Origin: a virus
Lineage: Duplodnaviria > Heunggongvirae > Uroviricota > Caudoviricetes
DNA length: 29,722 nucleotides
Reading direction: 5' to 3' (one strand)
IMG/VR virus record: IMGVR_UViG_2740892236_000001
Span: 1-29,722 of that record
Within the stretch, counting starts at the first letter, position 1, and every line of letters starts with the position of its first letter. Under the pieces are notes generated by a model. It was given only the letters and a program-made list of their open reading frames with translations, had not been told where the DNA came from and ran no database searches. Below are positions 9,491 through 29,608 of the stretch, one piece after another. The position numbers and the translations under genes were made by a program.

Positions 9491-11257
9491 ATGAACACCA
9501 CACTGACACCCGCAGATCTCGATCCCCGTCGGCAGGCCATGCTGCTCTACTTTCAGGGATACCGCGTAGCCCGCATTGCTGAAATGCTGGGCGAGAAAGT
9601 TGCAACCGTTCACAGCTGGAAAAAACGCGACAAGTGGAGTGAATATGGGCCGCTGGATCAGATGCAGCTCACCACCGCCGCACGCTACTGCCAGCTCATC
9701 ATGAAGGAGCACAAAGAAGGGAAAGATTTCAAAGAGATTGACCTGCTGGCGCGCCAGTCTGAGCGCCACGCGCGGATCGGCAAGTTTAACAATGGCGGCA
9801 ACGAAGCCGACTTAAACCCTAACGTCGCCAACCGCAACAAAGGCCCGCGCCGTCAGCCGGAAAAAAATGTCTTCACCGATGAACAGATTGAGAAGCTGGA
9901 AGAAATCTTCCATTCCTCCATGTTCAACTACCAGCGCCACTGGTGGGAAGCCGGAAAAACCAACCGCATCCGCAACCTGCTGAAGTCACGCCAGATCGGC
10001 GCGACCTTCTATTTTGCCCGTGAAGCCCTGATTGACGCCCTGCTTACCGGACGTAACCAGATTTTCCTTTCTGCCAGTAAGGCACAGGCCCACGTCTTCA
10101 AACAGTACATCATCGACTTTGCCAAAGAAGTGGAGGTGGAGCTGAAAGGCGATCCGATGGTGCTTCCCAACGGGGCCACACTGTATTTCCTCGGCACCAA
10201 TGCCCGCACTGCCCAGAGTTATCACGGCAACCTGTATCTGGATGAATATTTCTGGATACCGAAATTCCAGGAGCTGCGCAAAGTGGCTTCCGGTATGGCT
10301 ATTCACAAGAAATGGCGACAGACCTATTTTTCCACGCCATCCAGCCTGACACACAGTGCTTATCCGTTCTGGTCCGGTGCGCTGTTCAACCGAGGGCGCA
10401 ACAAAGCCGATAAGGTGGACATCGACCTGTCCCACAGCAATCTGGCCCCCGGCCTGCTGTGCGCAGACGGGCAATACCGCCAGATAGTCACCGTGGAAGA
10501 TGCGGTACGCGGCGGCTGTAACCTGTTCGACCTCGACCAGTTGCGCATGGAGTACAGCCCGGACGAATACCAGAACCTGCTGATGTGCGAGTTCGTTGAC
10601 GATCTCGCATCTGTGTTCCCGCTCAGCGAATTGCAGGCGTGCATGGTGGACAGCTGGGAAGTCTGGACCGACTTTCATGCACTGGCCCTGCGCCCGTTTG
10701 GCTGGCGCGAAGTGTGGATCGGTTATGACCCGGCAAAAGGTACGCAGAACGGCGACAGCGCCGGATGCGTGGTGGTGGCACCGCCAGCCGTGCCAGGCGG
10801 TAAGTTCCGCATTCTTGAGCGTCACCAGTGGCGCGGGATGGACTTCCGCGCCCAGGCTGACGCCATCAAAAAACTGACCGAACAGTACAACGTGACCTAT
10901 ATCGGTATCGACTCAACCGGCGTCGGTCACGGGGTTTACGAGAACGTGAAAGCGTTCTTTCCTGCCGTCCGGGAGTTTGTCTACAACCCCAACGTTAAAA
11001 ACGCCCTGGTACTCAAGGCCTACGACATTATCAGCCACCGCCGTCTGGAGTTTGACGCCGGACATACCGACATTGCGCAGTCATTCATGGCAATCCGTCG
11101 CGCCACCACCGCCAGTGGCAACCGCCCGACCTACGAAGCCAGCCGCAGCGAAGAAGCCAGCCATGCCGATCTGGCATGGGCAACCATGCACGCACTGTTT
11201 AACGAACCGCTGCAGGGCGAGTCCGCCAATACCAGCAATATTGTGGAGATTTTTTGA
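9491..11257 (+). CDS. P: terminase ATPase (large) subunit P
   Basis: 588-aa ORF (P2 gpP ~590 aa), divergent from O and followed by Q. Confidence 0.9.
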   Translation: MNTTLTPADLDPRRQAMLLYFQGYRVARIAEMLGEKVATVHSWKKRDKWSEYGPLDQMQLTTAARYCQLIMKEHKEGKDFKEIDLLARQSERHARIGKFNNGGNEADLNPNVANRNKGPRRQPEKNVFTDEQIEKLEEIFHSSMFNYQRHWWEAGKTNRIRNLLKSRQIGATFYFAREALIDALLTGRNQIFLSASKAQAHVFKQYIIDFAKEVEVELKGDPMVLPNGATLYFLGTNARTAQSYHGNLYLDEYFWIPKFQELRKVASGMAIHKKWRQTYFSTPSSLTHSAYPFWSGALFNRGRNKADKVDIDLSHSNLAPGLLCADGQYRQIVTVEDAVRGGCNLFDLDQLRMEYSPDEYQNLLMCEFVDDLASVFPLSELQACMVDSWEVWTDFHALALRPFGWREVWIGYDPAKGTQNGDSAGCVVVAPPAVPGGKFRILERHQWRGMDFRAQADAIKKLTEQYNVTYIGIDSTGVGHGVYENVKAFFPAVREFVYNPNVKNALVLKAYDIISHRRLEFDAGHTDIAQSFMAIRRATTASGNRPTYEASRSEEASHADLAWATMHALFNEPLQGESANTSNIVEIF

Positions 11258-12297
11258 TGAAAGAACATATCGCGCCAGGCGAAACCGTAACTGCAGAAGA
11301 AACTAAAAAACCCGTTGCGGAGGCTTTCAGCTTTGGTGATCCCATTCCTGTACTGGACCGCCGCGAACTGCTGGACTATGTGGAATGCGTACAGACAGAT
11401 CGCTGGTATGAGCCGCCCGTCAGCTTTGACGGACTGGCGCGCACCTTCCGCGCCGCTGTGCATCACAGCTCCCCCATCAGTGTTAAACGTGACATTATCA
11501 GCAGTACCTATATTCCGCATCGTCTTCTCAGTCAGCAGGCATTTACCCGTTTTGTGCAGGACTATCTGGTTTTTGGTAACGGCTACCTGGAGAAGCGCAC
11601 GAACCGTTTCGGTGAAGTTATTTCGCTGGAGCCTGCACTGGCAAAATACACCCGGCGCGGGCTTGACCTTGAAACATACTGGTTTGTGCAATACAGCCTG
11701 ACGACACAGCCGTATCAGTTCACAAAAGGTAACGTCTTCCACCTGATGGAGCCGGATATCAACCAGGAGATTTATGGTCTGCCAGGTTACCTTTCTGCCA
11801 TTCCATCCGCCCTGCTCAACGAGTCCGCCACGCTGTTCCGCCGGAAGTATTACATTAACGGCAGCCATGCGGGCTTCATCATGTACATGACCGACGCCGC
11901 GCAGAACCAGGAGGATGTGAACAACCTCCGCAACGCAATGAAAAGTGCCAAAGGTCCTGGTAACTTCCGTAACCTTTTTATGTACTCGCCTAACGGCAAA
12001 AAGGACGGGCTTCAGATCATCCCGTTGTCGGAAGTCGCGGCGAAGGATGAATTTCTGAACATCAAGAACGTGAGTCGGGACGACATGATGGCGGCACACC
12101 GCGTACCGCCGCAAATGATGGGAATCATTCCCAACAACACTGGCGGCTTCGGTGATGTGGAAAAGGCGAGCCGTGTTTTCGTCCGCAATGAGCTGATGCC
12201 ACTACAAAAGCGACTGCAGGAGCTTAACAACTGGCTGGGTGAAGAGGTGATCCGTTTTGAAACCTATGACTTAGGACTTAAGAGCAAACGAGGCTGA
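11254..12297 (+). CDS. Q: portal protein Q
   Basis: 347-aa ORF (P2 gpQ ~344 aa); start overlaps the P stop. Confidence 0.9.
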   Translation: MMKEHIAPGETVTAEETKKPVAEAFSFGDPIPVLDRRELLDYVECVQTDRWYEPPVSFDGLARTFRAAVHHSSPISVKRDIISSTYIPHRLLSQQAFTRFVQDYLVFGNGYLEKRTNRFGEVISLEPALAKYTRRGLDLETYWFVQYSLTTQPYQFTKGNVFHLMEPDINQEIYGLPGYLSAIPSALLNESATLFRRKYYINGSHAGFIMYMTDAAQNQEDVNNLRNAMKSAKGPGNFRNLFMYSPNGKKDGLQIIPLSEVAAKDEFLNIKNVSRDDMMAAHRVPPQMMGIIPNNTGGFGDVEKASRVFVRNELMPLQKRLQELNNWLGEEVIRFETYDLGLKSKRG

Positions 12298-12593: not shown

Positions 12594-13436
12594 TCATGCA
12601 CTACCCTGCTCTGCGTCGCCAGCAGTCTTTCTCCTGCGTGCGGATGGCTTTTTACCACCCAACTTGCGGCAGTCTTTCCGGTCACGCGCTTCGTTTTCTT
12701 TAAATTTGTTATACGTTTCAGTATCAAAAAACGAGATGGTTTCAACTTCGTCTTTAGGGAGCAGCACACGGAAATCCTGGATATTCAGGCGCGACATCCC
12801 ACTGATAACACCGCTTTCAAGATAGTGCTGATGATAGTTTGTCGTGATATTTATCGTTAGGTCGTCTTTATCACGATATCCGCTCAGCAAGGGGAGAATT
12901 TCAAGGTGTTCCGACAATCCATTTTCCAACGCAGGGCAAGTCACCAGCCCTACATAGATTTTGCGTGATGAAAGTGTAGCAATGATAGGAAACTGGCGAG
13001 CTGATGCTTCCATGAGCAGCGATTCAAAAGCATTGTTTCCCACTGCCTTTGCCAGTGCATCCCAACGGCGATCCCCCTTTGAAGTACGGCGTTTGTTTAG
13101 CCAACCGAACAGCGCCGCGAGAACTATTGAAATCACAACCCACGCGATTTGCTTAATTTCATTGATGCGCTGCGGTTTATCGGTTGTGGTGGATAACATC
13201 CCGTTAAAGCTGTCTGGAGTCAGATTCAGCGCATTAGAAAACCAGCGAAACCCACCGCTGATGTTAAGAGCGAAGGTAAGGAAGCCGCCAGCGAGGAAAA
13301 AGACAATTCCCCATGCAGCCACAAAAAAATAAGCGTCCCAGCCATTGGAACGCTTATATCTATAACGTGTTGAAAGTGATAGGTTTACATATATAAAACC
13401 ACTAACCAAAATCACTGCTAAAAGTAATGTTGCCAT
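12594..13436 (-). CDS. uncharacterised membrane protein (3 predicted N-terminal TM helices + ~160-aa soluble C-terminal domain); hotspot cargo
   Basis: 280-aa ORF; TM candidates LLLAVILVSGFIYVNL, YFFVAAWGIVFFLAGGFLTFAL, IAWVVISIVLAALFGWL. Start ATG overlaps the upstream gene stop (TAATG). Lower GC than neighbouring phage genes by eye. No recognisable catalytic motif. Confidence 0.7.
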   Translation of the reverse strand: MATLLLAVILVSGFIYVNLSLSTRYRYKRSNGWDAYFFVAAWGIVFFLAGGFLTFALNISGGFRWFSNALNLTPDSFNGMLSTTTDKPQRINEIKQIAWVVISIVLAALFGWLNKRRTSKGDRRWDALAKAVGNNAFESLLMEASARQFPIIATLSSRKIYVGLVTCPALENGLSEHLEILPLLSGYRDKDDLTINITTNYHQHYLESGVISGMSRLNIQDFRVLLPKDEVETISFFDTETYNKFKENEARDRKDCRKLGGKKPSARRRKTAGDAEQGSA

Positions 13437-13654
13437 TATCGGGTTCTGTAATAATATTTTGCTTTAACAGTGCTCGTTTTGATGCCTTCAAGCTTATCCA
13501 TCTGATCTCGGATGGCTTTCATAGCTTCTTCGTTGGACAAATCTACGGACACAAAACCATCTTTACTCAGATTGAGCTTGTCCTGGTTCTCTTTCAGAAC
13601 CCGTGCCAAACGTTCAACTGGATTACCCAGCTTCAATGCGGCGATACTTGACAT
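13436..13654 (-). CDS. small uncharacterised protein, first gene of the hotspot operon
   Basis: 72-aa ORF with a strong SD (AAGGAGG, complement of 13659-13665) 4 nt from the ATG; translationally coupled to the 280-aa gene. Confidence 0.7.
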   Translation of the reverse strand: MSSIAALKLGNPVERLARVLKENQDKLNLSKDGFVSVDLSNEEAMKAIRDQMDKLEGIKTSTVKAKYYYRTR

Positions 13655-13855: not shown

Positions 13856-13940
13856 AACAAAGGCAATTTCTAACGCCTCGCACGGCTCGTTGTTCAACCT
13901 TGCGGACGGTAAAAGCCAGTTTTATCGTCCGCAACGTTCG

Positions 13941-14174
13941 CTAATGCAGCCAGCTGTCGTCTTCCCACACCTTCTGCATAATTTTCATCACTTGTTTTCT
14001 TTCTTCGTCCAGTTGCAGTCCGGTCAGTTCCACACCGTTATAGCTACCTTTGCGGATACGAATTACCGTTTTTGGATACAGGGGGCGCAGATTGCGGTAA
14101 AGCTCGGATTCAAGGGCGTCCAGGGTAGACTGGCTAATCTTCTGCTCTTTATCGATCATTATTTCAATGCGCAT
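13941..14174 (-). CDS. DinI-family protein (Tum-like SOS module)
   Basis: From the internal Met: MRIEIMIDKEQKISQSTLDALESELYRNLRPLYP...WEDDSWLH, aligning with E. coli DinI as recalled (MRIEVTIAK...DALAGELSRR...WESADDW). SD GAGGTG upstream of the ATG at 14172-14174. The 101-aa ORF in the track is probably an N-terminal overcall. Confidence 0.75.
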   Translation of the reverse strand: MRIEIMIDKEQKISQSTLDALESELYRNLRPLYPKTVIRIRKGSYNGVELTGLQLDEERKQVMKIMQKVWEDDSWLH

Positions 14175-14184
14175 AAAAGTCACC

Positions 14185-14373
14185 TCAGCTGATGACATCC
14201 ATTGAGCGGTTGTATTCGTGGCTTCTGATTTTTGCCATGAGTTCATCAGTCAATTCAGAAACCCACTGCAGAGCCAGCCCCTTCTCTTCATCACTACACT
14301 CACTAGCCGCTACAAGCTTAAGAAAAAAATCAATGCGCTGGAGCTTCAAAGACTCCAAAAAATAGTCCTGCAT
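14185..14373 (-). CDS. small protein (62 aa), first gene of the SOS-box operon
   Basis: Internal ATG at 14371-14373 is preceded by AGGAGGA. The 96-aa ORF in the track extends upstream across the LexA box and is probably an overcall. Confidence 0.55.
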   Translation of the reverse strand: MQDYFLESLKLQRIDFFLKLVAASECSDEEKGLALQWVSELTDELMAKIRSHEYNRSMDVIS

Positions 14374-14416
14374 CTTTCCTCCTATGACACCACAAGCAAT
14401 ACTGTATACATAACCA

Positions 14417-14432
14417 CTGTTTATATTTACAG
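14417..14432. promoter_or_regulatory. LexA box (SOS operator) CTGTTTATATTTACAG
   Basis: Perfect CTGT-N8-ACAG match to the E. coli LexA consensus, ~45 bp upstream of the 62-aa gene start and next to a TTTACA -35-like element on the minus strand. Confidence 0.6.
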
Positions 14433-14526
14433 CATATAATAATCTTACTGATGTAAAACGTTTTTTTACGTTCATCAGCCTGATATGCCTGGTATTATTA
14501 AGAGCACGAATTGTTAACCCGCGTAA

Positions 14527-16941
14527 TTAATACAAGTTTCGCCACTTATCATCTTCCTGCAAACGCTGGTTCCGATAGAAGATACGCAGGCCTGCTCCTG
14601 ACGGAATACTGCCGCCGCGAAGGAGTAAATCGACCTCTTTCTCGCTGCCATCAAATCCTCTGGACTTCAGTTCGTAGACGAGCTGCTGTCGCTGATGGTC
14701 TGTAATTCGCTGTTTGTAGTCTTTACGCCGTTTCGGTTTCACCAGGCGTAACCTTGCAGCCAGTTCCCGGCGCTCTTTTTTGCTCATACTGTGCAGGTAA
14801 TCGTGCAACTCCTTGTCATCCATGCGGGTAATGTCCGTCCTGGTATCCCCATCAGCTGATTTGTCTTTCCCTTGTTGGTTCAAATTTTCAGCAAGGGGAC
14901 AGTTATTGCCACGAGTCCAAGGGGCGCAAGCGCCCTGGTCGGCTGCCGCCTCCTGAACGTCAACGGCCTTACGAACCATTTTCCACTTCACCGCATGAGT
15001 GCAGATCTTGCCCTCTGCAATGGGTGACCAGATGCCATAAATACGAATACCGTGATCGCCATATGCGGTCGGTTCTTCGTTGATTTCATAAGCAGTTCTG
15101 ATGAGGTGATATTTGCGGGGAACCAGTACGCCGCCCTGCTTCATGATGTAGGTGGCAAAACAACCAGCATCAGCAGCAGCCAGGATTGCATCAAGGCGCG
15201 GGTTATCCAGTACCGGCGCACCTGCTTTTTTGTCCCCCTGTTGCCTTGCCGCCTGACCAGCCAGCAATCGCAGTTCACGGTAAGCCTGACGCCCCGGAAT
15301 GCCAAAGAAGCGGAATTGCTGAACACGATGCAGAGACGCCCAGGCATTAACGTATTCAGCGTTATCACGCAGGGATTTACCCGTTTCCTTGCTGATCTCG
15401 CCAGCCAGACCACGCCCGTCAATGTTCTTACTGATGTATTTCGCGATGTAGCTTGTTGGCGTACCTTTGCGCGGGTTTATCAGCTCAGACTTAAAGCGTG
15501 GCCCCGTGTTATTGCCCAGCTCCTCGCGGTCTTCACGGATGGCAAACTTACGCAACAATGCAGTAATGGCGCGGCGGTCTTTTTTACGCATGAAACACAA
15601 CAGGTGCCAGTGAACTGTGCCGTCATGATGCGGCTCAGCCACCCGCACGCCATACCAGCGCAACCCGGCTTTGTGCATAGCCTTACGAAATGCAGCAAAC
15701 ATGCCGACCAGATAATCGCTGCTTTGTCTTACTGTCGCGTTGGTCCAGGTCGGGTTTGGCCTGCCGTTATTTAGCGTGGAATGGAAACGTGACGGACAGG
15801 TGATGGTGTAGAAAACGGCGCAGTCACCACGCATTTCCGCGATAAGCTCCAGGCCTTTAACACAGGCCATCATCTCATTGCGGCGATGCGCCGGGTTGCT
15901 GCTGCTGGCGTTTACCACATCCTCCATGTTCAGCGTGTCGCCGTCTTCGTTCACCAGTTCATGAGAACGGAAAAACTCCAGCGACTTACGGCGCTGCTCA
16001 CGTTTATGCATCACGGCTTCATAGCTGACATAGGGAGATGCTTTTTTGCTGACCAGGCAGACAGCACGCAACTGCTCTTCCCGCCATTCGCAACGCATCT
16101 TCCATAATTTCCGATACCACCAGTCGGCGCACAGCATACGCGCCAGCGAACCCGGAATGAGTTCATAGGGCACAGGTTTGCGGCGGTTTCTTTTCCGGCG
16201 GAGTTGCTCAAACGCAGGCGGTATGACATCCAGTCGCAGGGTTTCTGCAGCCACCTTTTCCCATGTCTTGCGGATTTCTTCTGGCTTAACATCATCGGAG
16301 GCGTACAAATCACCACAAGCGGCATCAAGACACATGCTCATATGCGCAGCGACAAGGGTAGACAGGCGTTTCACCTGATCCTGACTCATTTCAGGCAGGA
16401 TCAGCAGACCGTCCAGCCCTTCATGGCTTGCCATAAAACGAAAAGATGCAGATAGCTGGCTGTCGCGTACATGCTCCAGTCGTTCCAGACATGGCTTAAT
16501 CGTCTCACGCAAATAGCGGGAATAAGCCTTTGGCCTGCCCAGGCTGCTGAAATATTCAATACGTTGCATCAGCGGCTTGCTGATATGGGAAGGCTGGGCG
16601 TTGACGTCGGCCAGAATGACCATGTCCGGATTAAAACGCTGCTGCTCATGCGCCATCTTTGCCCGGCTAATGAGCTTATCCTGCTCCATTTCGCGTTGGA
16701 CAGGATCACGGGATTCATTAAAGAAATAACGCTCCCAGACCTGATCACTCAGTGCCTCGCGGCGCAGTTGTTCCTGCTCGTTATCAGTAGCGTACAGAGT
16801 GATCAGGTTTGAAAGCGCAGAAACCGGCGCAACTTCCGCCGGGTCCAGATAAGGGTTAATGGCCTTTTTCGGGCTGTTCCATGAGAACGATGCGGCAGCT
16901 TCGTTAAAGCCGCAGCAGTTGTTCATATCGGCATGACTCAT
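14527..16941 (-). CDS. A: replication initiation protein A (rolling-circle HUH endonuclease)
   Basis: 804-aa ORF with HUH-like motif ([10 protein letters not shown]) and paired tyrosines (YIAKYISK) as in P2 gpA. Start overlaps the dam stop. Confidence 0.85.
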
Positions 16942-17795
16942 GCACGTACTCCGTACACGGCAGAACTATCCACGCCACGCGAATAATCAAATCCCACCCA
17001 GCAGCGCGGCCCGGAAACAGCAATGATTTCTGTTGCTGATTTACCCTCGCCAGCTGCCACACCGATGCTGCGTTTTGCCTTGATGTAGTGGTGAGTAAAA
17101 TTGCGATACAGCGAACGGATCAGGGATGTGTCACTGTTAGAAACAATGACCGGATGTCCTTCTGATGACCGATGTTCAAGAACGGATGCCAGGTGATACT
17201 GGTCATCTTCAGTGAAGCCGTCAGTGTGATAACCGGAAAACGTGCCGTCATACGGCGGATCGCAATACACCACATCCCCCGCCTTCAACATCGCCAGCGT
17301 TTCATCAAAGCTGGCGCAGATAAACGTTGCCCGCTGGGCTTTTTCTGCAAATGCGCGAATTTCTTTTTCTGGGAAATACGGATTTTTATAATTACCGTAG
17401 GGAATGTTGAAATGCCCGCTCTTGTTATAGCGACATAAACCACGGTAACCGTGACGATTGAGATACAGGAAATATACCGCTTTCATGAAATCAGTAATTT
17501 CAGTTGAGTAATTAAACTCCTGCCTTATGTTGTAATAAGCCACCTCCCTGTTTGCTTCCTTAAATAAAACTCTGGCGCGAGATATAAACGATTCACAATC
17601 AGCGGCAACCTTTTTATAGAGGTTGATTAAATCAGGATTAATATCCGCAACCAGATAGCTTGGATAATCCGTCTCCATCATCACAGCACAGGAACCCGCG
17701 AAAGGTTCAACCAGTCGCGGGCCAGCAGGAAGGTGTTTTTTCAGTTCGGACATAATGGCAGTTTTATTACCCGCCCATTTCAGGATGGTGCTCAT
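16938..17795 (-). CDS. dam: DNA adenine methyltransferase (Dam family)
   Basis: Start at internal Met [11 protein letters not shown] with SD GCAGGAGG; contains FAGSCAV and DPPY motifs typical of Dam/N6-adenine methyltransferases. The longer ORF to 17867 is probably an overcall. Confidence 0.85.
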
Positions 17796-18094
17796 ACAGC
17801 ACCTCCTGCAATAACATATCCTAAAGCTTCTAATGGGGTTAATGAGCGAATTGATAGCATCACCCATTGTTCTGAAACTGCCATGACGTCATTAACCGGA
17901 AGCACATGAGAGATAACCGCGGCCCATTCCCTACCCGTAAATACGCCATGCTTCCATTCGCAAAGAGAAAGAACATCACCAACTTTATAGCCACGATCGT
18001 CTTTACGAAGTTCAGCCGTCTTTTGACCTGCAACCACAGCATTGAAATACTTAGGTGCAATTTTTAATTGATGGATACGCACAGCCCCTGTCAT
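17792..18094 (-). CDS. small phage protein, possibly ASCH/DUF3850-like
   Basis: ~100 aa from Met [42 protein letters not shown]; SD ACGGAGG; stop overlaps the dam start (ATGA). Family assignment is tentative. Confidence 0.55.
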
Positions 18095-19381: not shown

Positions 19382-19891
19382 TCACAGCAAACCGAATGAA
19401 GCACCGAGGCCAGTCACGGTATCAACTGCACTCGCCATCGCAGGATTAGCCTGTAAACGGGCCTGCAATGAAACAGCCGCCAGCGCCATCAGTCGTGTTA
19501 CAGAGTTAATGCTGCTGATAGCATCACGACGACCGGCACAGGTTTTTACATCGCCAGATACCGCACCTGCAGCAACACGCCCGATCTCTGCGGTTGCACT
19601 CATGACGTAATGTGGCAGTTTCTCTTTTGCCACCTCATTAATCGGTACACATGGCAGACAATGAATCTGTGCCAGAAAACCATCTACCAGCGTTGAATCT
19701 TCAGTCAGATCGGTAAGCAGCCAGATTTCTGGTGCGGTTAATAAATGAGGCTGAGCTGGGTTCAGCTTGTTCCGCAGAATCTGTACATTCATGCCTGCAC
19801 GTTCTGCCAGTTGCACCAGGTTGTGACGCAGTGCAAAAGCCCTACAGGCTTCATCGAAATGCGGATGTTTGGAAATCTTGTAATCAAACAT
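19382..19891 (-). CDS. cII: CII-type transcriptional activator (phage 186 CII-like)
   Basis: 169-aa ORF starting [45 protein letters not shown]..., resembling 186 CII as I recall it (also 169 aa). Confidence 0.75.
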
Positions 19892-19923: not shown

Positions 19924-20166
19924 TTACTTACCAACAATGACGCGGAAGTTGGAATGACCGAGGGATTCACGGACCTGATCAGTTTTGTACATCAGATAAC
20001 GAAGGTTTACGCGGCCTTTATTTTTTTCTTTCTTGACCATGTATTTAGCAAGCTGACCATGGTGAATTTTTTGATACACGGAGCCGCGGGAGATACCTTC
20101 CCATTCCGCGAACTCTGCAGGCGTAGCCATCTCTTTTGGTACACGAATTGAAATATCAGTGCTCAT
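19924..20166 (-). CDS. apl: Apl/Cox-type excisionase-repressor
   Basis: 80-aa ORF divergent from cI and immediately upstream of cII, the position and size of 186 Apl. Confidence 0.65.
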   Translation of the reverse strand: MSTDISIRVPKEMATPAEFAEWEGISRGSVYQKIHHGQLAKYMVKKEKNKGRVNLRYLMYKTDQVRESLGHSNFRVIVGK

Positions 20167-20285: not shown

Positions 20286-20918
20286 ATGATACAGGTAAAG
20301 GCTGGAGAGAATACAGGGGGAAGAGAAGCTATCCATAGACTAATGGCAGCCTATGATTTCAAGTCCAGACAGCAACTTTGCGATCACTTAGGCGCATCAA
20401 AAAGCACCATGGCAAACAGATACTTAAGAGATAGTTTTCCTGCAGAGTGGGTGATTCAGTGCGCCTTGGAAACAGGAGTTTCTTTACTGTGGCTAACCAC
20501 CGGACAGGGGGAGCCAGGTCCAAACATTGAACCCAAAAAAAATATCAATTCCGTGAACTCCAGCAAGGTTGTACCTCTTTCTGAACTAGTATCTCCTGAA
20601 ATTGACAAGGCGACTCTCAACGGTGGTTTATTGGTCGATGCTGGAAAAGCAATCATTGATAGCAGCATACTCCCCTCAGACTCAAGCAACCTACTGCTGG
20701 TGACTACTTCTGGTGATTCTTATTTAATAGATCGCAACCAAACACCACCAGTGAATGGTATGTGGTTAGTCGATATCGACGGGATAAAAAGCATTGTTAA
20801 ATTGACTCGACTCCCGGGAAACAGATTAGTAGTGCATCAGGATGATTCATCGTTTGAGTGTGGCCTGGGTGACATTGAGGTAGTAGGCCGTGCACTGAAA
20901 ATCATTAAGAGCCTTTGA
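20286..20918 (+). CDS. cI: CI-type immunity repressor (186 CI-like)
   Basis: 210-aa ORF divergent from apl and immediately upstream of int; N-terminal region consistent with an HTH DNA-binding domain. Confidence 0.75.
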   Translation: MIQVKAGENTGGREAIHRLMAAYDFKSRQQLCDHLGASKSTMANRYLRDSFPAEWVIQCALETGVSLLWLTTGQGEPGPNIEPKKNINSVNSSKVVPLSELVSPEIDKATLNGGLLVDAGKAIIDSSILPSDSSNLLLVTTSGDSYLIDRNQTPPVNGMWLVDIDGIKSIVKLTRLPGNRLVVHQDDSSFECGLGDIEVVGRALKIIKSL

Positions 20919-20919
20919 T

Positions 20920-21936
20920 ATGACCATCAGAAAACAGCCGAACGGAAAATGGTTGTGTGAGTGCTATCCCAATGGACGCAATGGCAAGCGCGTGCGTAAG
21001 CAATTTGCCACGAAAGGCGAAGCCATAGCATTCGAAAACTTCACCATGAACGAAGTAAACAAAAAGCCATGGCTTGGTGAGAAGGAAGATCGGCGGCGAT
21101 TATCAGAAGTGATTGAGCAGTGGTATTCCCTATATGGTCAAACACTCGCAGACCCCAAACGCCTGATGGCGAAACTTAGAATTATCTGTAATGGTCTAGG
21201 CGATCCCATCGCCTCTGAGCTGACAGCAGGTGATTTCACAAAATATCGGGAAGCCAGATTAAAGGGGGAGGTCCAAAATGAAGACGGCTCGTTCATGTCA
21301 CCCGTTAAGCCCCGCACGGTAAACCTTGAACAGCGCAACCTATCATCTGTTTTTGGTACACTGAAAAAGCTGGGCCACTGGTCAGCCCCCAACCCGCTTG
21401 CCGGGCTTCCAACATTTAAAATTACGGAGGGTGAACTGGCGTTCCTAACCCCGGAGGAAATTAAACGTCTGCTGGATGCCTGTGCTGATTCTCAAAGCCC
21501 CAGTCTGCTAATGATTGCAAAAATATGCCTAGCAACCGGTGCTCGTTGGAGTGAAGCTGAAAACCTGCAGGGCCATCAACTATCGAAATACCGGATTACC
21601 TATACAAAGACCAAGGGTAAAAAAAACCGTACCGTACCGATATCTCAGGATCTGTACAACGAGCTACCCAAAAACCGAGGGAAATTATTCACACCATGCA
21701 GAAAAGCCTTTGAACGGGCGGTAAAACGGGCCGCTATTGAACTACCGGAAGGCCAATGCACCCACGTCCTGCGCCATACATTTGCCAGCCATTTTATGAT
21801 GAACGGTGGGAACATACTCGTTTTACGTGATATTTTAGGGCACTCAGATATTAAAATGACGATGATTTATGCACACTTCTCTCCAGACCACCTGGAGGAT
21901 GCAGTAACAAAAAACCCTCTTTATAACTTAATTTAA
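20920..21936 (+). CDS. int: tyrosine integrase (P2/186 Int family)
   Basis: 338-aa ORF with C-terminal HVLRHTFASHFMMNGGNILVLRDILGHSDIKMTMIYAHF (catalytic R/H/Y region); N-terminus resembles P2 Int. Confidence 0.9.
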   Translation: MTIRKQPNGKWLCECYPNGRNGKRVRKQFATKGEAIAFENFTMNEVNKKPWLGEKEDRRRLSEVIEQWYSLYGQTLADPKRLMAKLRIICNGLGDPIASELTAGDFTKYREARLKGEVQNEDGSFMSPVKPRTVNLEQRNLSSVFGTLKKLGHWSAPNPLAGLPTFKITEGELAFLTPEEIKRLLDACADSQSPSLLMIAKICLATGARWSEAENLQGHQLSKYRITYTKTKGKKNRTVPISQDLYNELPKNRGKLFTPCRKAFERAVKRAAIELPEGQCTHVLRHTFASHFMMNGGNILVLRDILGHSDIKMTMIYAHFSPDHLEDAVTKNPLYNLI

Positions 21937-21950
21937 GTAAACAATGGATC

Positions 21951-22601
21951 ATGAACATAAACGAGATAATTAAGTATTCTGTCGCGATAATTACCCCGAT
22001 CATACAGATGCTCGCGGTAAGATCCGGCTGGGTTTTCCCCAAAGATAAGATTTTCAACTCGCGCAAAAACATTAGCGAGTTTGCATACAATCTATATAAG
22101 AATACTGAAGATCCCAAAATCAAGAAAGTTGCATATAATTATGGTATTGCTGCAATAACAAAAGATAAGAACCTAACTCCAGAACAGAGAGAGATTCTTT
22201 TAGGTGTTAACGATCCAGTTAATGACATTGATAACTATAGCAAGTGTCAAAAACTAATTTCTATTAGTAGTGAAAAACAAATATTTAAATGGACAAAAAA
22301 AAGATATCGCTTTTGGATATATAGAAAATCTATAAAGCTGATAAGCTTAACATTCTATTTTATTGGCGGTTTTATAACTTCCATACCTTTTGTATACGAA
22401 GGATTAGTAACCCAACATATTTTAGAGAAAATTAATAAACTTACTGATATGCAAAGATTAGGAATGTCCAGCTACTTTTTTGCACTTGGGATTTGTATAG
22501 CACTGATGAACCTGCATAAATTTTCGACTATTCGTATCGCTGAAAAAACCATAAGATCTAATCTCCGTAAACCCACAGATTTCAACTCAAGCAGCGGATA
22601 A
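21951..22601 (+). CDS. uncharacterised membrane protein in AT-rich DNA between int and att
   Basis: 216-aa ORF with two predicted TM helices (LISLTFYFIGGFITSIPFVY; MSSYFFALGICIALMNL). Markedly AT-rich relative to the prophage core, by eye. Confidence 0.6.
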   Translation: MNINEIIKYSVAIITPIIQMLAVRSGWVFPKDKIFNSRKNISEFAYNLYKNTEDPKIKKVAYNYGIAAITKDKNLTPEQREILLGVNDPVNDIDNYSKCQKLISISSEKQIFKWTKKRYRFWIYRKSIKLISLTFYFIGGFITSIPFVYEGLVTQHILEKINKLTDMQRLGMSSYFFALGICIALMNLHKFSTIRIAEKTIRSNLRKPTDFNSSSG

Positions 22602-22916: not shown

Positions 22917-25900
22917 TCAGAACGACCAGTTCACACCAGCTACCGCGTTCCACGGGGATTCCACACCGGCACTATGGCTATACCCCACCCCAAGATGCCC
23001 GCTTAACGTACTGCTGAATGAGGCTTTAATACCTGCCTGGTATATTCCACGTCTGCCCGACAAATAATTGACGAAATTACCGTCACTATTCACTTTCACC
23101 CGGTTATCATCGACAAATTCTTTGCGCACAGCCGCCTTCAGCCACGGCTCAACTTCCATACCGTTCCCCAGACGCATGTTGTAACTCAGCGTTGCGCCCA
23201 GTTCACGATATATACTGCGGGTATCGACTGATTTCGATTTCATGCCATTGGATAAATGATATTCGGGGTTATCAGCGGTGAACCCCGTTAACGATGCATA
23301 CGGCGTCAGGTTCCAGTTACCATCGGTAAATCGCATCCCGGTTTCAATGTGACCGCCCAGCCCGTTGCTGTGGTAACTGCCATTGGCGGCTCCACCGCTG
23401 CTCATTTTACCTGCTACGTTACTTTTAAAACGGTTCAGCTTCACGACACCGTCCAGATAGAAACCACTTTCATGTTCCCAACTGGCATAGCCGCCCAGAG
23501 AATAACTGCCCACACTGCCATGTCCTCCGCGATCAAAACCGATATGTGAATGGGAATAGCCCATAAAAGCGCCTAGCGTGGTAATTCCTTCAGGAATATC
23601 ATTACGGCTGTCGATCCCCACTGTCATTCCGGTCAGCGTCTGCTCAAACCCGGCACCCGCATCGGTGGTGACATTATTACGGGTGTTATACGTCGCCCCC
23701 CAGACATTATTGTTGTGTGGACTCGCTTTCATTATGTTCAACCGCTCGCGAATACTGTTTAGCTCAGCATCAAATACCAACGGTAATGTTGCTGCCATAT
23801 TGAGTACGGCTGCCGTAGAAGGCGTAATGCGTTTCTCCGGAACGGGTGTCGGCGTTGGATCGGGAGTAGGGTCTGGTTTTGGATTTGGGTCTGGCTTTGG
23901 ATCGGGTTTTGGGTCTGGCTTTGGATTTGGGATGGGGTCCGGGTTGGGTTTGACATCATTGGTCAGGTTCCAGTTGCTGTTGCCGTCACTTTTCAGGACA
24001 TACTCATAGGTCCCAAGATCAACGAAACCGCCGGTATTGCCCAGCGTAAACGAAGCATCCCCTCCCCCTGTTTTCACCAGCGTCATCGCGTCGTCAGACT
24101 GTGGGCTGACGCCGGTATCCTGAACAAAGATTTTAAAATTACCAGTGGCGTTGTTGTTGACGACCAGTTGATCGCCCCGGGAGCCTGCAACGTTGGTATG
24201 CAGGTAGAAATTACCGCTACCGGAAAGTTCATTGGTTGTCAGCGTATTGTAGATACCGTTAGTTGTGGCAGGCGCTGCTGTTTGTGCTGACAAATAAACA
24301 TCACCGTCGTTGAGTAGCAAACTGTTTACTCTATATTCGCAGTTGCTGGTACCTGCACAGGAATTATTGCTGTTAAGCCAGACACTGCCCCGGCTGGCAG
24401 CCGTCAGGTCGGCAAGCGTGGTATCGACGCCATTTCCCAGAGTCAATGTCGCGCTATCGGTAATCCGGACCGCCCCTTCGAGTTTAACTGGCGTAACATT
24501 ATCCCGTGGCGTCATTAACGACAGGCTTCCTGTCGCGCCACTGACCGATGCATCCGCCAGCGTACCTGCGTAGACGATTGCCGTACCGCCAGCGACCTGG
24601 AGATCTTCTGCCCGGGCCAGAGCCTGAAACTCATCTTTTGACCGCCCAAGGGTATATTGCCCGCCAGAGTTAACCTTTGTGGCGGAGTCCTGACCCAGGT
24701 TTTGCATTGCCCCACCCTTGCCAACCGTGGAGTCGCGAGCTTCGGTACCTGCTAATACCAATAAATTACCGCCATTTTCCAGCAACATATTGGTCGCTAA
24801 ATTGCCGGAAATGGAAAAAGTACCGTACTGGTGAGTACCGCTGATTTCAATACCGTTAGCCGTGCTCGTCTGGAGAGCGGCACCGCTGTTCTGGACGATA
24901 TCTGTCGCTTTGCCATTATCGTTGACTGTCAGCGTACCGCCTTCATTGATCTTTGTTTTTATTGCCTCTCCGTTAGCTGAAACTGTTTGTATTCCGCCGT
25001 CGTTAATTGTTGTCTCATTCGCCACACCCTCGACAATTTGTTCACCGCCGGTGAGCGTCGTGCCTGTCGCAGTGGCTTTTGTTTTGACGATCTCCCGTCC
25101 GCCCATATTGACCTGTGTTTTGTCAGAAGAGGTGTCTGACTCCACGGTTAACACGCCGCCATTTGCCAGCAGGATATTGTTCGCCGCACCCTGCTCGATG
25201 CTGAACGCGACGCCATCCGCGCGTGTTCCTGTGACCCGCGTCGCCCTGGTGGTTGCAACCAAAGCGCCCTGGCTACTCTGCTGTATCCCCGTTGCGCTGC
25301 CTTTCTCCCGCACATCGAGTGTGCCGCCGTCATTAAGCACCGAGTTTTCAGCCAGACCGCCCTCATTAACTACCTGTGAACCCCCATTAATAATGGAACC
25401 TTCCGCTGTCCCGTTTGCCATAATTTGTTGTAGGCCAGAGACGATATCGGTATTGATTGCCTTACCATAATTCTGAACGGTTTGCGTGCCACCATTGATG
25501 TGTGTTTTCTCTGTTGACCCACCATCAACAATTTGTTCACCACTTTCGATATTTGCTTCAGTGGCTAAACCATATACCGTTTGCTTGCCACCTTTGATAT
25601 TTGCTTTATCAGAAGTGGCACTGGCATATATTGTTTGGGTGCCAGCACTATTGAGTACAGTGCCAACATCTTTTCCATAAACATCCATTTTGCCGTTGGC
25701 ATTAATAATCGTGTCAACTGCGCGGGAACCAGTGACGACTGTTAATGAGCCAGCGTTTTCCAGCACTACATTTTTAGCTTCTGAATTCCTGATGTAGAAA
25801 GCATCACCATAACTGTTGGTTCCTTCGATAAGTGTTCCGGAGGTCGTGGAAGCAATTAATGCGCCGCCGGATTGTTGCTCAACATGCTTAGCCTCACCAC

Positions 25901-27506
25901 CGTCCTGAACCTCCAGAACGCCGCCATTATTAAGTCTGGTGCTATCTGTTTTAGCCTCCTTCTGGACAATCAGCTTACCGCCAGTATCAATGGTAGTATT
26001 TTTCGCCGAGGTTTTAGCCACTACCGTCAGTTCGCCGGTATTTTCCAGCACAACATAATTAGCCTCCCCTCCGGTAATAGTGAAGTGAGAGAGCTTGTTG
26101 TATCCTTCGATATCAGTCCCTGCACCCGTGTTGGCAACTAAAGCACCGCCCGTCTCCTGGTTAACCCCATGTGCAATACCGCCGGTATAGACAATCAGCG
26201 AGCCTCCGGCGCTAATATTGCTGCCAATTGCCGTACCATCTTTCTCAACAACCTGCCGGCTCCCGGAGGATATAATTGTTGTGTCAGCTTTCCCGCCGCT
26301 TTTGATATTTTGCGTTCCGCTGTTGATATTGGTGCCTGTGGCTATGCCATAATTATTAATATTCTGTGTGCCACCATTAATTATGGTATTTGTCGCGTTT
26401 CCTGCAACATCCATAACCCCGCCATTATCTATTCGGGTCGCATCAGCTTTAGCATTGGTTAAAACTGACATTGTTCCTTTATCTTTAATAATCGTCTTGT
26501 TTGCCGAACCATATGCGTTTATGTCTAAATGACCACCGTTTTCCAGCAACACATTGTCTGCCACGTGATTGTGGATGGAGAATGCACCTTCACTATTCGT
26601 ACCGCTCACCGTCGTACCGTTAGTGTTAGTTTTTAAAATTGCACCATCGTGCTGGGTAACATTTGTTGCCGTACCACCACTAACATCAAGCACGCCACCA
26701 GAATAAACTTCAATAACATCCGAGGTGCTGGTGTTATCAACAATTTGCGTGCCACCAGAATAGATATGCGTATTTTTTGCCGTTGACTTACTATTCAGAG
26801 ACTGAGTTCCGCCTTCAATCGTCGTGTCCAGCGCACGGCTCTCATATACTCTTTGCTCACCGCCATTTTTAATGGTTGTTGTTTCTACTGTGCTCTGTTC
26901 AACATACTGTCGACCACCATTTATGGTTGTGTTCGTTGCCAGACTTCCTTGTACTACGTCCTGAGAGCCAGACTTATTTATCGTTGTACCATCAGCATGC
27001 CCTTGAACTTTTACTATCTGGCTACCACCATCAATGAGTATTCCATTCGCACTCCCTCCCTCTACGCGTGAAGCACCGCCCTTAATTGTCGTTCCATTGC
27101 TGATACCCCCTTTATAAACGTCCTGATTGCCACTCTCGATTGTCGTACCTGTGGAAATACCCCCGTCATGAATTGACTGTCTGCCACCGTTAATGGTTGT
27201 ATTATTAGCCTGCCCCACAAAATTGTTATGACTTCCTATATCTTGATATCCACCAGATTCAATAAGACTTCCATTAGATACCCCGCCATGAACATTCTGC
27301 TGGCCATGGTTGATAATATGAGTGTTATTTGTTGTACCTCGTTCATCCACTTTTTGGTTGCCATCTACAGTCTCATCGTTTACCACACCAATAACATTAG
27401 TAGTGAAGGCAGCCATCCCGGGCGGGGCATATATCAAGGCAGATATCAATAAGGAAAGTACTGAGCGGCGACAATAATAGGGACTGGTCCTGTTCATAAA
27501 TTTCAT
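22917..27506 (-). CDS. large AIDA-I-type autotransporter adhesin (YpjA-like)
   Basis: C-terminal beta-barrel ending ...AGVNWSF, Pro-rich (PxPKPD) linker, long repetitive passenger domain. Probable start at MKFMNRTSPYYCRRSVLSLLISALIY (extended signal peptide); the track ORF extends to 27626. Resemblance to K-12 YpjA is from memory. Confidence 0.85.
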   Translation of the reverse strand: MKFMNRTSPYYCRRSVLSLLISALIYAPPGMAAFTTNVIGVVNDETVDGNQKVDERGTTNNTHIINHGQQNVHGGVSNGSLIESGGYQDIGSHNNFVGQANNTTINGGRQSIHDGGISTGTTIESGNQDVYKGGISNGTTIKGGASRVEGGSANGILIDGGSQIVKVQGHADGTTINKSGSQDVVQGSLATNTTINGGRQYVEQSTVETTTIKNGGEQRVYESRALDTTIEGGTQSLNSKSTAKNTHIYSGGTQIVDNTSTSDVIEVYSGGVLDVSGGTATNVTQHDGAILKTNTNGTTVSGTNSEGAFSIHNHVADNVLLENGGHLDINAYGSANKTIIKDKGTMSVLTNAKADATRIDNGGVMDVAGNATNTIINGGTQNINNYGIATGTNINSGTQNIKSGGKADTTIISSGSRQVVEKDGTAIGSNISAGGSLIVYTGGIAHGVNQETGGALVANTGAGTDIEGYNKLSHFTITGGEANYVVLENTGELTVVAKTSAKNTTIDTGGKLIVQKEAKTDSTRLNNGGVLEVQDGGEAKHVEQQSGGALIASTTSGTLIEGTNSYGDAFYIRNSEAKNVVLENAGSLTVVTGSRAVDTIINANGKMDVYGKDVGTVLNSAGTQTIYASATSDKANIKGGKQTVYGLATEANIESGEQIVDGGSTEKTHINGGTQTVQNYGKAINTDIVSGLQQIMANGTAEGSIINGGSQVVNEGGLAENSVLNDGGTLDVREKGSATGIQQSSQGALVATTRATRVTGTRADGVAFSIEQGAANNILLANGGVLTVESDTSSDKTQVNMGGREIVKTKATATGTTLTGGEQIVEGVANETTINDGGIQTVSANGEAIKTKINEGGTLTVNDNGKATDIVQNSGAALQTSTANGIEISGTHQYGTFSISGNLATNMLLENGGNLLVLAGTEARDSTVGKGGAMQNLGQDSATKVNSGGQYTLGRSKDEFQALARAEDLQVAGGTAIVYAGTLADASVSGATGSLSLMTPRDNVTPVKLEGAVRITDSATLTLGNGVDTTLADLTAASRGSVWLNSNNSCAGTSNCEYRVNSLLLNDGDVYLSAQTAAPATTNGIYNTLTTNELSGSGNFYLHTNVAGSRGDQLVVNNNATGNFKIFVQDTGVSPQSDDAMTLVKTGGGDASFTLGNTGGFVDLGTYEYVLKSDGNSNWNLTNDVKPNPDPIPNPKPDPKPDPKPDPNPKPDPTPDPTPTPVPEKRITPSTAAVLNMAATLPLVFDAELNSIRERLNIMKASPHNNNVWGATYNTRNNVTTDAGAGFEQTLTGMTVGIDSRNDIPEGITTLGAFMGYSHSHIGFDRGGHGSVGSYSLGGYASWEHESGFYLDGVVKLNRFKSNVAGKMSSGGAANGSYHSNGLGGHIETGMRFTDGNWNLTPYASLTGFTADNPEYHLSNGMKSKSVDTRSIYRELGATLSYNMRLGNGMEVEPWLKAAVRKEFVDDNRVKVNSDGNFVNYLSGRRGIYQAGIKASFSSTLSGHLGVGYSHSAGVESPWNAVAGVNWSF
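23857..23952 (-). repeat. tandem 6/18-nt repeat encoding the PDPKPDPKPDPNPKPDPTPDP linker
   Basis: Visible tandem GGGTCTGGCTTTGGAT-type repeats; the plus-strand 'GSGFGSGFGSG' ORF is its antisense image. Confidence 0.6.
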
Positions 27507-27899
27507 CCTCTGAAAAGTGAATACTGAGTAGCGTTTAAGCGACCTTAGCTTTGCTGCAACATCAGCCCACAGGCACCAGACCAGGGGATTCATCCTGAAG
27601 AGACAGCGCAAGTGTATTGTGTTCACCGCTCATCAAAGACATCATGATGAAATGATGATATTCCGCATAAGAATGAGGCATTTTTTAAACGCAGTGCGCT
27701 GAAGTGTGGTTGGATAAAAAAGTCAATCCATTCAGGAAATACGGGCGTATTCTTTTCTTTCGACAATGAGGCCGTTGGCAAAATAAAATGATTTACATAA
27801 TCGTTTCTGATGAATATCTTCTGCTCACATAAAAATCACACAATAACTTTGAGATCGCAGATTGTTTTACTTTTACAGCATTCGTCCCCCCATTGTTGG

Positions 27900-28408: not shown

Positions 28409-29200
28409 TCATTGAAAACTGCTTTTAGAACTTGATACAACGGGACTAGTCACAACAGGACTATTCTCAACGGGATCATCCTCAGAGGAACTATCATCAA
28501 AGTCATCATCCATAAATAAAATATCATCGAATGGTGCCACGCCCGTGATGAGTTTTATTTTATTATTACGATCAGTCAATACTCCACTTAAACCGTTTTC
28601 GCTCACAGGTTTTAATGATTTTTCATTACTCTTGTTGTAAGCAGGCGCATTAAAAATACACGGAGTATCAACATCAAACAATGACGTTCCCCAGTTCACA
28701 TATTGAATATCATAGTTACTGAAGTTCTGTCCAGAAAAGAAGCACCCCTTAAAATCCAATCCACGTAAATTATATAAACCACCCTCTTCTTTTTGGAGAG
28801 TAATGTTAATTTTGGCTATCTCCCGGACATCATCGCCATTTTTGTATTTGAATACCGTTTCAAGATGTTCTCCAGACAGCTTGACTTCAGGAAATAATTT
28901 GAAATCAAAGCCTATATTATTATGTGTCAACGTAGATGAACAAAAAATGGAAAAAGCTTGCAGTGCTGAATTATAGCTATCGATTTTATCTTGAGGCTGA
29001 GCTCTTGGTAAAAACTTATAGCAACACTCATAAAAATTAAACAGAAGCTCTGAAGACCTTGTATTTTTATCAAATAATACCCCCTTGAACTCATTCACAA
29101 ACGCATCTTTTTTTTCTTGAATATCTATGGGGTGTTCCTTTGACTCTGACAAAGATGAAATCTCATCTATTTTGTTTTCATATGAATTACGTGATTCCAT
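28409..29200 (-). CDS. hypothetical protein with pentapeptide-repeat-like segment and acidic C-terminal tail; AT-rich island gene
   Basis: 263-aa ORF; NLRGLDFKGCFFSGQNFSNYDIQYV resembles pentapeptide repeats; C-terminus DDDFDDSSSEDD. Very AT-rich. Confidence 0.6.
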   Translation of the reverse strand: MESRNSYENKIDEISSLSESKEHPIDIQEKKDAFVNEFKGVLFDKNTRSSELLFNFYECCYKFLPRAQPQDKIDSYNSALQAFSIFCSSTLTHNNIGFDFKLFPEVKLSGEHLETVFKYKNGDDVREIAKINITLQKEEGGLYNLRGLDFKGCFFSGQNFSNYDIQYVNWGTSLFDVDTPCIFNAPAYNKSNEKSLKPVSENGLSGVLTDRNNKIKLITGVAPFDDILFMDDDFDDSSSEDDPVENSPVVTSPVVSSSKSSFQ

Positions 29201-29299
29201 ACAGACATTTGGCGGCGTTTCTAAAATAACACTACGCGTACTACTTGGCTTAAGTAAACCAACATGAAAATCACTTTTTCTTATATTATCGAAAAGGTT

Positions 29300-29608
29300 C
29301 TATTCATTTCTTTTAGCGCATTCAAAAAACTGATCGGCATTATTTTTATTCGATAATTTTTTAGTTTCAGAAAACACATTTTCATTGTTTTCCAGCTTTA
29401 GTTTAATGAGAAGATTTTCCCAGACCTGCTTGCTTAAACATATTACGTCAGGCTCACCAGAACTAACTAACTCGTGATTATTATTAAAGTGTACGTTGAA
29501 TACCTTTAAGTTATTTTCACCAACTTCATATTTAATACGTTTTAATTGTTCTCCAGCTCCCATAATGACAAAGGCGTTGCCTTCTTGATATATACATTCA
29601 GACATCAT
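29300..29608 (-). CDS. hypothetical protein (AT-rich island gene)
   Basis: 102-aa ORF in the same orientation and AT-rich context as the upstream gene. No family assigned. Confidence 0.45.
   Translation of the reverse strand: MMSECIYQEGNAFVIMGAGEQLKRIKYEVGENNLKVFNVHFNNNHELVSSGEPDVICLSKQVWENLLIKLKLENNENVFSETKKLSNKNNADQFFECAKRNE

Follow-up and report, generated by a model that had tools for sequence, protein, structure and literature searches.

The minus-strand region 13941-14434 of the window (the whole 29,722-nucleotide stretch of viral DNA that was analysed) reads, at a probability of roughly 0.88, as the SOS-induction operon of a P2-like prophage of the 186/Fels-2 type, in which a LexA-repressed promoter serves a split tum gene encoding a Tum antirepressor and a DinI-like protein. 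The operon type is already known and is the DNA-damage switch of 186/Fels-2-type P2-like prophages. The original prediction likened the locus to the LexA-repressed tum operon of phage 186, with its DinI-like Tum C-terminus, and this likeness is borne out by the 186 record and by alignment to residues 71-145 of 186 Tum. Its proposal of a split or variant antirepressor holds in so far as Tum is split here, but the arrangement is not new, having precedents in the tumA/tumB pair of PSP3 and in Fels-2.

The proposed mechanism would operate as follows. In an undamaged cell, LexA would occupy two overlapping operators that cover the putative -10 hexamer and the transcription start, and the promoter would be shut. 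DNA damage would activate RecA, LexA would cleave itself and the promoter would fire, giving one short transcript from which a 62-aa TumA-type protein and a 77-aa TumB-type protein are made. The 62-aa protein, a predicted helical-hairpin antirepressor, would then inactivate a CI repressor that does not cleave itself and so release the early lytic promoter. The 77-aa protein would tune the SOS response via RecA filaments, being neither needed for induction nor sufficient for it alone. An identical or near-identical module elsewhere has been shown to need both cleavage of LexA and the 62-aa gene for induction, and by analogy the promoter of the window is putatively LexA-dependent and inducible.

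The window carries a 186/Fels-2-type prophage of the P2 family in reverse orientation. Capsid and terminase genes occupy about 6.8-11.3 kb, followed by the portal gene (11254-12297). On the other side of the operon lie the replication gene gpA (14527-16941, minus strand, PF05840; stop codon at 14527-14529), a Dam-type methylase gene (16938-17867, minus strand), CII (19382-19891), a Cox/Apl-type excisionase gene (19924-20166), the 186-type immunity repressor gene cI (20286-20918, plus strand, 210 aa) and the integrase gene (20920-21936). The SOS operon sits directly 3′ of gpA on the same strand, with variable cargo and the portal gene beyond it. This order of gpA followed by the SOS operon, the mark by which a 186-type tum operon was recognized, is the same in 186, PSP3, Fels-2 and DuoHS, a prophage of Escherichia coli HS.

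The first gene of the operon (tum, tumA-type; 14185-14373, minus strand) encodes 62 aa, and its designation as an antirepressor or induction factor derives from homology and from identity with the DuoHS protein ECHS_RS04495, which it matches at 62 of 62 positions. The good Shine-Dalgarno sequences expected of both ORFs are present, as AGGAGG (14378-14383, minus strand) 4 nt before the ATG of the 62-aa ORF and as GAGGTG 7 nt before that of the DinI-homologous ORF. Listed ORFs of 96 and 101 aa were rejected as upstream extensions, the forms annotated in RefSeq being those of 62 and 77 aa; the start of the 96-aa ORF would precede the promoter, so that it reads through the LexA boxes. When tum (ECHS_RS04495) is deleted in frame from DuoHS, mitomycin C no longer triggers lytic replication, and the same loss of mitomycin C induction is seen in a lexA(Ind-) background (PMC12055606). 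The requirement for the 62-aa protein in SOS induction, shown in DuoHS, is presumed to extend to the window prophage, whose protein is the same. The gene occurs in phages or genomes of Klebsiella, Salmonella, Yersinia, Cronobacter and other genera, and in RefSeq ECHS_RS04495 is labelled 'hypothetical protein'.

Upstream of the 62-aa ORF, by about 45 nt, the predicted perfect CTGT-N8-ACAG LexA box is found at 14417-14432 (CTGTTTATATTTACAG), the sole match in the 29.7-kb window when both strands are searched. It forms the core, CTGTAAATATAAACAG on the minus strand, of a distal 20-mer box at 14415-14434. The original prediction described a single LexA operator; the box is there, but the operator is double, with a second, proximal 20-mer box at 14400-14419 (CAGTGGTTATGTATACAGTA on the minus strand) whose core, 14402-14417, overlaps the distal core by 1 nt at a centre-to-centre distance of 15 bp. 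The proximal box has GTGG where CTGT is expected. The 20-mers were graded with a heterology-index-like (HI-like) score derived from a set of about 24 LexA sites of E. coli, which gives 4.2 for recA, 2.6 for umuDC and 6.8 for lexA box 1, against published values of 4.31, 2.77 and 6.39. On this scale the distal box scores 5.9 and the proximal box 10.3. These are the only two 20-mers below 13 in the 29.7 kb and lie next to each other, no further LexA-like site below 13 being present elsewhere in the window, where the 0.01 percentile is 14.6.

Both boxes are conserved, standing at the identical position in all Fels-2-type relatives compared, amid a flanking spacer that varies. The double-box loci comprise the window, the Klebsiella phages ST15-OXA48phi14.1 and ST437-OXA245phi4.1, Fels-2, SopEPhi, a Yersinia phage, three E. 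coli chromosomes and DuoHS. At each of them the second box, (C)AGTGGTTATnTnTACAG(T), follows the perfect box with 1 base in common and a 15-bp centre offset. A single LexA box is found in 186, PSP3, ESSI-2 and ESSI2_ev015 (HI-like 0.75 to 4.8), and it aligns with the proximal box of the double operators. LexA probably binds both boxes here, as their sequences suggest, binding to the proximal one being likely by analogy with colicin operators. By inference from the same analogy, a Fels-2-type tum promoter may be repressed more tightly, or released later, than one with a single moderate box. The primary paper on the split tum of Fels-2 is said to be that of Bunny et al. from 2002; it lay outside the literature searched, in which no account of a double operator in a tum promoter was found.

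The promoter elements are putative, assigned by analogy and conservation. A -35 candidate, TTTACA (14452-14457, minus strand), is conserved in all Fels-2-type loci, and the 13 nt after it are variable across the group. At a spacing of 17 nt stands the putative -10 hexamer, TGCTGT (14429-14434, minus strand), with which the distal LexA 20-mer opens. The model for this assignment is p95 of 186, recorded with a -35 of TTCACA, a spacer of 18 nt and a -10 of TACTGT at which the LexA site begins. An alternative -10, TATGCT (TATACT in relatives), would have a 15-nt spacer. A generic sigma-70 promoter scan flagged no minus-strand promoter here, at neither -10 candidate. As far as these assignments go, the LexA operator appears to overlap the promoter.

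One base of this promoter is peculiar to the window. Position 14433 is G (TGCTGT), where 11 of 11 related loci compared have A (TACTGT). The promoter/operator stretch of ~160 nt is about 95% identical to that of DuoHS, and the promoter region is present in 1100 of 5426 complete E. coli genomes (~20%). Over 166 nt, however, no complete E. coli genome matches at 100%; the best match is 99.4%, and in the closest genome, M7424, base 14433 is the sole difference. Likewise, the G variant appears in none of nine extended ORF calls in the protein database. The A-to-G change costs either candidate -10 a consensus base, moves the distal box from 4.8 up to 5.9 on the HI-like scale and could weaken the promoter.

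These observations feed the alternative that survives best, although it is distinctly the less probable reading, namely that a known tum operon has been crippled or mismatched in this prophage, through the -10 change or through a mismatch between Tum and CI, and that induction by SOS is poor or absent. The isolation of the G among the 11 related loci, the complete genomes and the nine ORF calls speaks for such a lesion, as does a precedent in strain D23580, where one -10 SNP silences the dinI-gfoA promoter of Gifsy-1 and blocks induction (PMC5322425). For a mismatch it can be said that the window CI is just 44% identical to the CI of DuoHS, in which the same 62-aa protein is required. On the other hand, the -10 assignment rests on analogy, a colicin operator likewise begins with TGCTGT, and both ORFs are intact. 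Moreover, a Tum at least 97% identical accompanies many divergent CIs, which indicates that divergence of CI is tolerated.

The CI protein itself points to a need for an antirepressor. The window CI, 32% identical to 186 CI, consists of PF07022 and PF16452 and lacks the peptidase S24 domain expected for lambda-type autocleavage. It cannot undergo RecA-stimulated autocleavage, and SOS induction would therefore need an antirepressor. By analogy with 186, the window CI is the presumed target of the 62-aa protein; since it shares only 44% identity with the CI of DuoHS, the effect of this Tum on it is a presumption. In the Fels-2 group the same Tum (at least 97% identical) is paired with CIs that are 38-57% identical to the window CI, and within these CIs the N-terminal DNA-binding domain is 62-80% identical whereas the C-terminal domain is only 30-51% identical. 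The N-terminal domain of 186 CI is 39% identical to that of the window. The pattern suggests that Tum docks on the N-terminal domain of CI and could act across immunity types. For Gifsy antirepressors, such cross-action has been demonstrated (Lemire et al., PMC3121763).

The relationship of the 62-aa protein to Tum is a distant one. Its identity is about 22% with PSP3 TumA and about 20% with the N-terminal half of 186 Tum, and BLASTP of the ORF against 186 Tum returned no alignment. At the profile level the homology to this N-terminal half is nonetheless clear from comparison of sequence families: hhalign joins the 62-aa family and the Tum N-terminal family with a probability of 96% (E 4.4e-9) over columns 2-44 of both, and E7, L20, C26, A34 and E40 are invariant. 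Residues 1-69 of 186 Tum and the 62-aa ORF also hit the same three PHROGs (698, 8554 and 1993) in the same register and reciprocally, the Tum segment matching phrog_698 at 6e-6. Of the alignments proposed as a check at the outset, the one with 186 Tum succeeds for both small proteins, by profile for the 62-aa protein and directly for the DinI-like one, which also aligns with E. coli DinI. No model in the Pfam, NCBIfam and PADLOC libraries matches the 62-aa ORF, and a sequence search of the PDB was likewise empty up to an E of 10. AlphaFold predicts a confident two-helix hairpin (pLDDT 88) with the invariant Cys26 in the turn. This predicted fold is uninformative on function, because Foldseek against the PDB recovers only generic helical hairpins with E above 1.

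By analogy with the fused 186 Tum and with PSP3, the 62-aa protein would bind CI directly and block its binding to the operator. The basis for the analogy is the biochemistry of 186, done with the fused protein and taken here from PMC3121763, PMC7708051 and the 186 GenBank annotation, and a personal communication on PSP3 cited in PMC3121763. It is quite improbable that the protein induces the prophage without sequestering CI, through degradation of CI or by way of Apl, CII or a host factor. That route gains some room from the identity of about 20% to the N-terminal half of Tum, from the lack of a structure or family annotation for the 62-aa protein and from the DuoHS genetics, which establish a requirement and not a mechanism. 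Against it, the profile homology is with the N-terminal half of Tum, an antirepressor which binds CI and keeps it off the operator, antirepressor activity is reported for the upstream gene of PSP3 (PMC3121763), and the type of TumA tracks the type of CI at the family level, which TumB does not.

The second gene (tumB-type; 13941-14174, minus strand) follows the first after a gap of 10 nt that includes GAGGTG, and encodes a DinI-like protein of 77 aa, a presumed modulator of the RecA filament. The protein matches the Pfam DinI family PF06183 at 6e-23 (81.4 bits, the cut-off being 24.2; residues 14-76 align with profile positions 1-63) and phrog_189 at 3e-29. It aligns with E. coli DinI (PDB 1GHH) at E 6.8e-6, sharing family, length class and the acidic C-terminal W-E-D-D-S-W helix region, and is 41% identical to residues 71-145 of 186 Tum, 99% identical to the Fels-2 protein and 78% identical to PSP3 TumB. 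On the host DinI equivalog model of NCBIfam, NF007893, it reaches 40.9 bits, below the cut-off of 111. By these matches it is a phage DinI-like paralogue and not chromosomal dinI. Since the 62-aa protein matches the N-terminal half of Tum and the DinI-like protein its C-terminal half, the module constitutes a split Tum.

The target of DinI is the RecA filament, which is also named in the PHROG label of the 77-aa family. The 77-aa protein is most likely a binder of RecA filaments that tunes the SOS signal, and not an antirepressor. A role for it as the effector that inactivates CI, or a joint action of both chains as a two-chain Tum, is very improbable. The two parts do form one polypeptide in 186, and here the genes are 10 nt apart and probably translationally coupled. 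However, DuoHS loses induction when just the 62-aa gene is deleted in frame (PMC12055606), deletions of the dinI homologues of Gifsy phages leave induction unaffected (PMC3121763), the TumA-like gene stands alone in ESSI-2-type phages, and phages whose CIs differ widely share a conserved TumB.

The reading of the 62-aa protein as antirepressor and the 77-aa protein as SOS modulator fits the way in which the two have diverged. Between the window and PSP3, TumB is 78% identical, TumA about 22% and CI about 35%, and ESSI-2-type phages have a TumA-like gene without a DinI-like gene. In line with this, TumA would be the phage-specific part directed at CI, and TumB a modulator of a conserved host target.

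Induction of a related operon has been observed in Salmonella. Within the predicted LexA regulon, the STM2727 tag of the STM2726-STM2728 operon showed the most significant response to MX, a 5.5 to 14.8-fold induction (PMC2225428), and this tag probably sits at the DinI-like position of the Fels-2 operon. It is hardly credible that the LexA motif arose by chance in the AT-rich DNA between genes and that the operon lies outside SOS control: although CTGT-N8-ACAG taken alone is weak evidence, since 29 of 100 window shuffles contain at least one match (mean 0.33), the two best sites of the window adjoin each other, they are conserved in position in all relatives while the spacer varies, they lie at the position equivalent to the LexA site of 186 p95, lexA(Ind-) blocks DuoHS, whose promoter is near-identical (PMC12055606), and STM2727 is induced by mutagen (PMC2225428).

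Beyond the known operon type, three features may combine into a tentative proposal, which is held to be possible yet doubtful as a whole: the double operator would raise or delay the SOS threshold for induction, the near-invariant Tum would cross-induce heteroimmune prophages via the N-terminal domain of CI, and the private -10 change may blunt the switch in this prophage. In the literature searched, no description was found of a double-operator threshold, of cross-induction by Tum or of the private -10 change. The main value of the analysis is annotation transfer for a very common gene labelled 'hypothetical', one that decides the response of these P2-like prophages to DNA damage. Two smaller leads, the double operator and the association of one Tum with many CIs, touch on the threshold of induction and on how prophages may influence one another.

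Three hairpins on the minus strand border or interrupt the operon. After the gpA stop, an imperfect hairpin at 14447-14479 includes the putative -35 in its 3′ arm; the fold of 14440-14530 has -18.4 kcal/mol (z -2.5). It may end transcription of the early operon or insulate the SOS promoter from it. Terminator-like palindromes also precede the LexA boxes of Gifsy SOS loci (Lemire et al., PMC3121763). A small hairpin at 14179-14196 spans the tum stop and the Shine-Dalgarno sequence of the DinI-like gene and is followed by TTTT and the ATG. Kept in Fels-2 and E. coli M7424 and not clear in SopEPhi or the Yersinia phage, it could contribute to translational coupling or to weak attenuation. Finally, a strong hairpin at 13900-13934, 7 nt past the DinI-like stop, has no U-run and occupies the position of t95a of 186. 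It could act as a partial terminator or as a stabiliser of the mRNA 3′ end.

The genes beyond this last hairpin are variable cargo, comprising a 72-aa ORF (13436-13654) and a gene for a predicted membrane protein of 280 aa (12594-13436). Cargo downstream of the operon occupies a known P2 hotspot. These genes were rejected as a conserved part of the operon, as the 280-aa ORF and STM2726 of Fels-2 have no similarity to orf97 of 186. PADLOC returned no match for the downstream cargo genes.

Several known systems resemble the operon in part. The operator of the window, a 35-nt double box containing CTGTAaATAtAAACAGTGGTTaTgTaTACAG, has close counterparts in the operators that precede a pore-forming colicin gene (on a small Col plasmid) and the pesticin gene (on pPCP1), which are nearly identical to it both in sequence and in the geometry of the 1-nt overlap. 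As in the colicin type of double operator, the second box of the window begins (C)AGTGG, ends ACAG and overlaps the first by one base; the offset is 15 bp in all Fels-2-type loci. Colicin double SOS operators bind two LexA dimers, and their individual boxes have heterology indices of 7.5 to 13, those of the proximal boxes being 9.7-13 (PMC2994835), similar to the scores in the window. Cooperative binding of two LexA dimers and tight repression are known for colicin operators and, by analogy, putative for the window promoter. The colicin and pesticin operators drive toxin genes, whereas that of the window drives a phage antirepressor gene. In the colicin promoter the boxes lie just 3′ of a separate -10, whereas the distal box of the window apparently includes the -10. 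The likeness may reflect either common ancestry or convergence.

Among phage operons, the dinI-gfoA/gftA loci of the Gifsy phages 1 to 3 also place a small antirepressor and a DinI homologue under LexA control, with a repressor that is not cleaved (PMC3121763). In these operons, however, dinI comes first, the opposite of the gene order in the window, and the Gifsy phages are lambdoid with a repressor of another family. No evidence was found of homology between the Gifsy antirepressors and the 62-aa protein. Phage 186 is closer, with its LexA-repressed p95 directly after the A gene, a -10 within the LexA box, the antirepressor part ahead of the DinI-like part, and a CI without autocleavage, all as in the window. 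The differences are that 186 fuses the modules into one 146-aa Tum, has a single LexA box where that of the window is double, and continues downstream with orf97, which is unrelated to the downstream genes of the window. According to the 186 record, internal in-frame starts yield shorter tum products, down to the DinI-like part alone.

PSP3 shares the two-gene arrangement after gpA, again under a LexA box, and its record annotates the split genes as tumA and tumB, a pair of names for which a literature search returned irrelevant papers only. It has one near-consensus box (HI-like 0.75), whereas the window has two. In both Fels-2 and PSP3, tum is split in two, the upstream gene of PSP3 carrying the antirepressor activity (PMC3121763). 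In Fels-2 the two genes after gpA, STM2728 and STM2726.1, encode proteins 97% and 99% identical to the 62-aa and 77-aa proteins, with a CI type about 51% identical to the window CI (judged from RE2010). The closest match is DuoHS, where ECHS_RS04495 is a 189-nt gene between gpA and the DinI-like gene ECHS_RS04500, the same position as in the window. Its DinI-like gene is almost identical in DNA and has the same annotated length, and its operator is the same double LexA box. DuoHS differs in having TACTGT in place of TGCTGT, different cargo 3′ of the DinI-like gene, and a CI that shares less than half of its residues with that of the window.

The 62-aa Tum of the window (14185-14373, minus strand), a TumA-type antirepressor, is conserved far more closely than the immunity repressor that is presumed to be its target. 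Across the prophage loci compared with the window (L015-L020), Tum is 97-100% identical, while the accompanying CI is just 38-57% identical to that of the window (20286-20918, plus strand). In the CIs that are paired with a near-identical Tum, the N-terminal helix-turn-helix domain retains 62-80% identity, versus 30-51% for the C-terminal domain. This pattern hints at where Tum may dock on CI, and it likewise hints that cross-induction among heteroimmune prophages through a common Tum may be possible.

Genes of this type also occur elsewhere. The P2-like phages ESSI2_ev015 and ESSI-2 encode a TumA-like gene (41-49% identical) under one LexA box, with no DinI-like gene 3′ of it; in the ESSI-2 record, this ORF carries no annotation. 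In the E. coli B lineage used in laboratories (strain C2566, NZ_CP014268.2, 1602846-1606010), an intact tum/DinI-like pair with its double LexA box lies in a defective prophage, in which gpA and CII are truncated pseudogenes, and the pair is adjoined by a retron St85 effector gene.

The promoter of the window carries a private change. Position 14433 is G on the minus strand (C on the plus strand), versus A in relatives, so that the putative -10 hexamer reads TGCTGT rather than the TACTGT present in all of the relatives read (11/11). The same position also belongs to the distal LexA box (14415-14434) as a flanking base, and the 166-nt promoter region has no 100% match among complete E. coli genomes. 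The A-to-G change could be a promoter-down variant, comparable to the Gifsy-1 SNP of strain D23580. Operators vary naturally in relatives as well: ACAG is changed to ACAT in the distal LexA box of Klebsiella phage ST15-OXA48phi14.1 (L002, 4016-4035), and CTGT to CTGC in the operator of E. coli NGF1 (L013, 197-216), either of which could weaken LexA control.

Cargo genes on the minus strand (12594-13654) separate the SOS operon from the portal gene: one is a 72-aa ORF (phrog_9843), the other encodes a predicted membrane protein of 280 aa (phrog_3630), and Pfam, NCBIfam, and PADLOC assign neither of them. In ST15-OXA48phi14.1 this pair has two further genes after it, a 69-aa ORF and one for a TIR-domain protein, which the window lacks. 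The cargo may be part of a defence system located in the P2 hotspot, or what is left of one. At the other end, an unassigned 216-aa ORF (21951-22601) directly follows int. Past the integrase end of the prophage, the genes for an autotransporter adhesin of the AIDA/pertactin type (1569 aa) and for DUF5508/DUF5507 proteins, at 22917-27626 (minus strand) and 28409-29608, presumably belong to the host chromosome.

The two LexA boxes of the window overlap by 1 nt to form a double operator (14400-14434), unlike the single box found in each of 186, PSP3, and ESSI-2. Over about 35 nt, this operator is nearly the same as two other double SOS operators, one lying upstream of a gene for a pore-forming colicin (pF2_18C_Col), the other upstream of pesticin (pPCP1).
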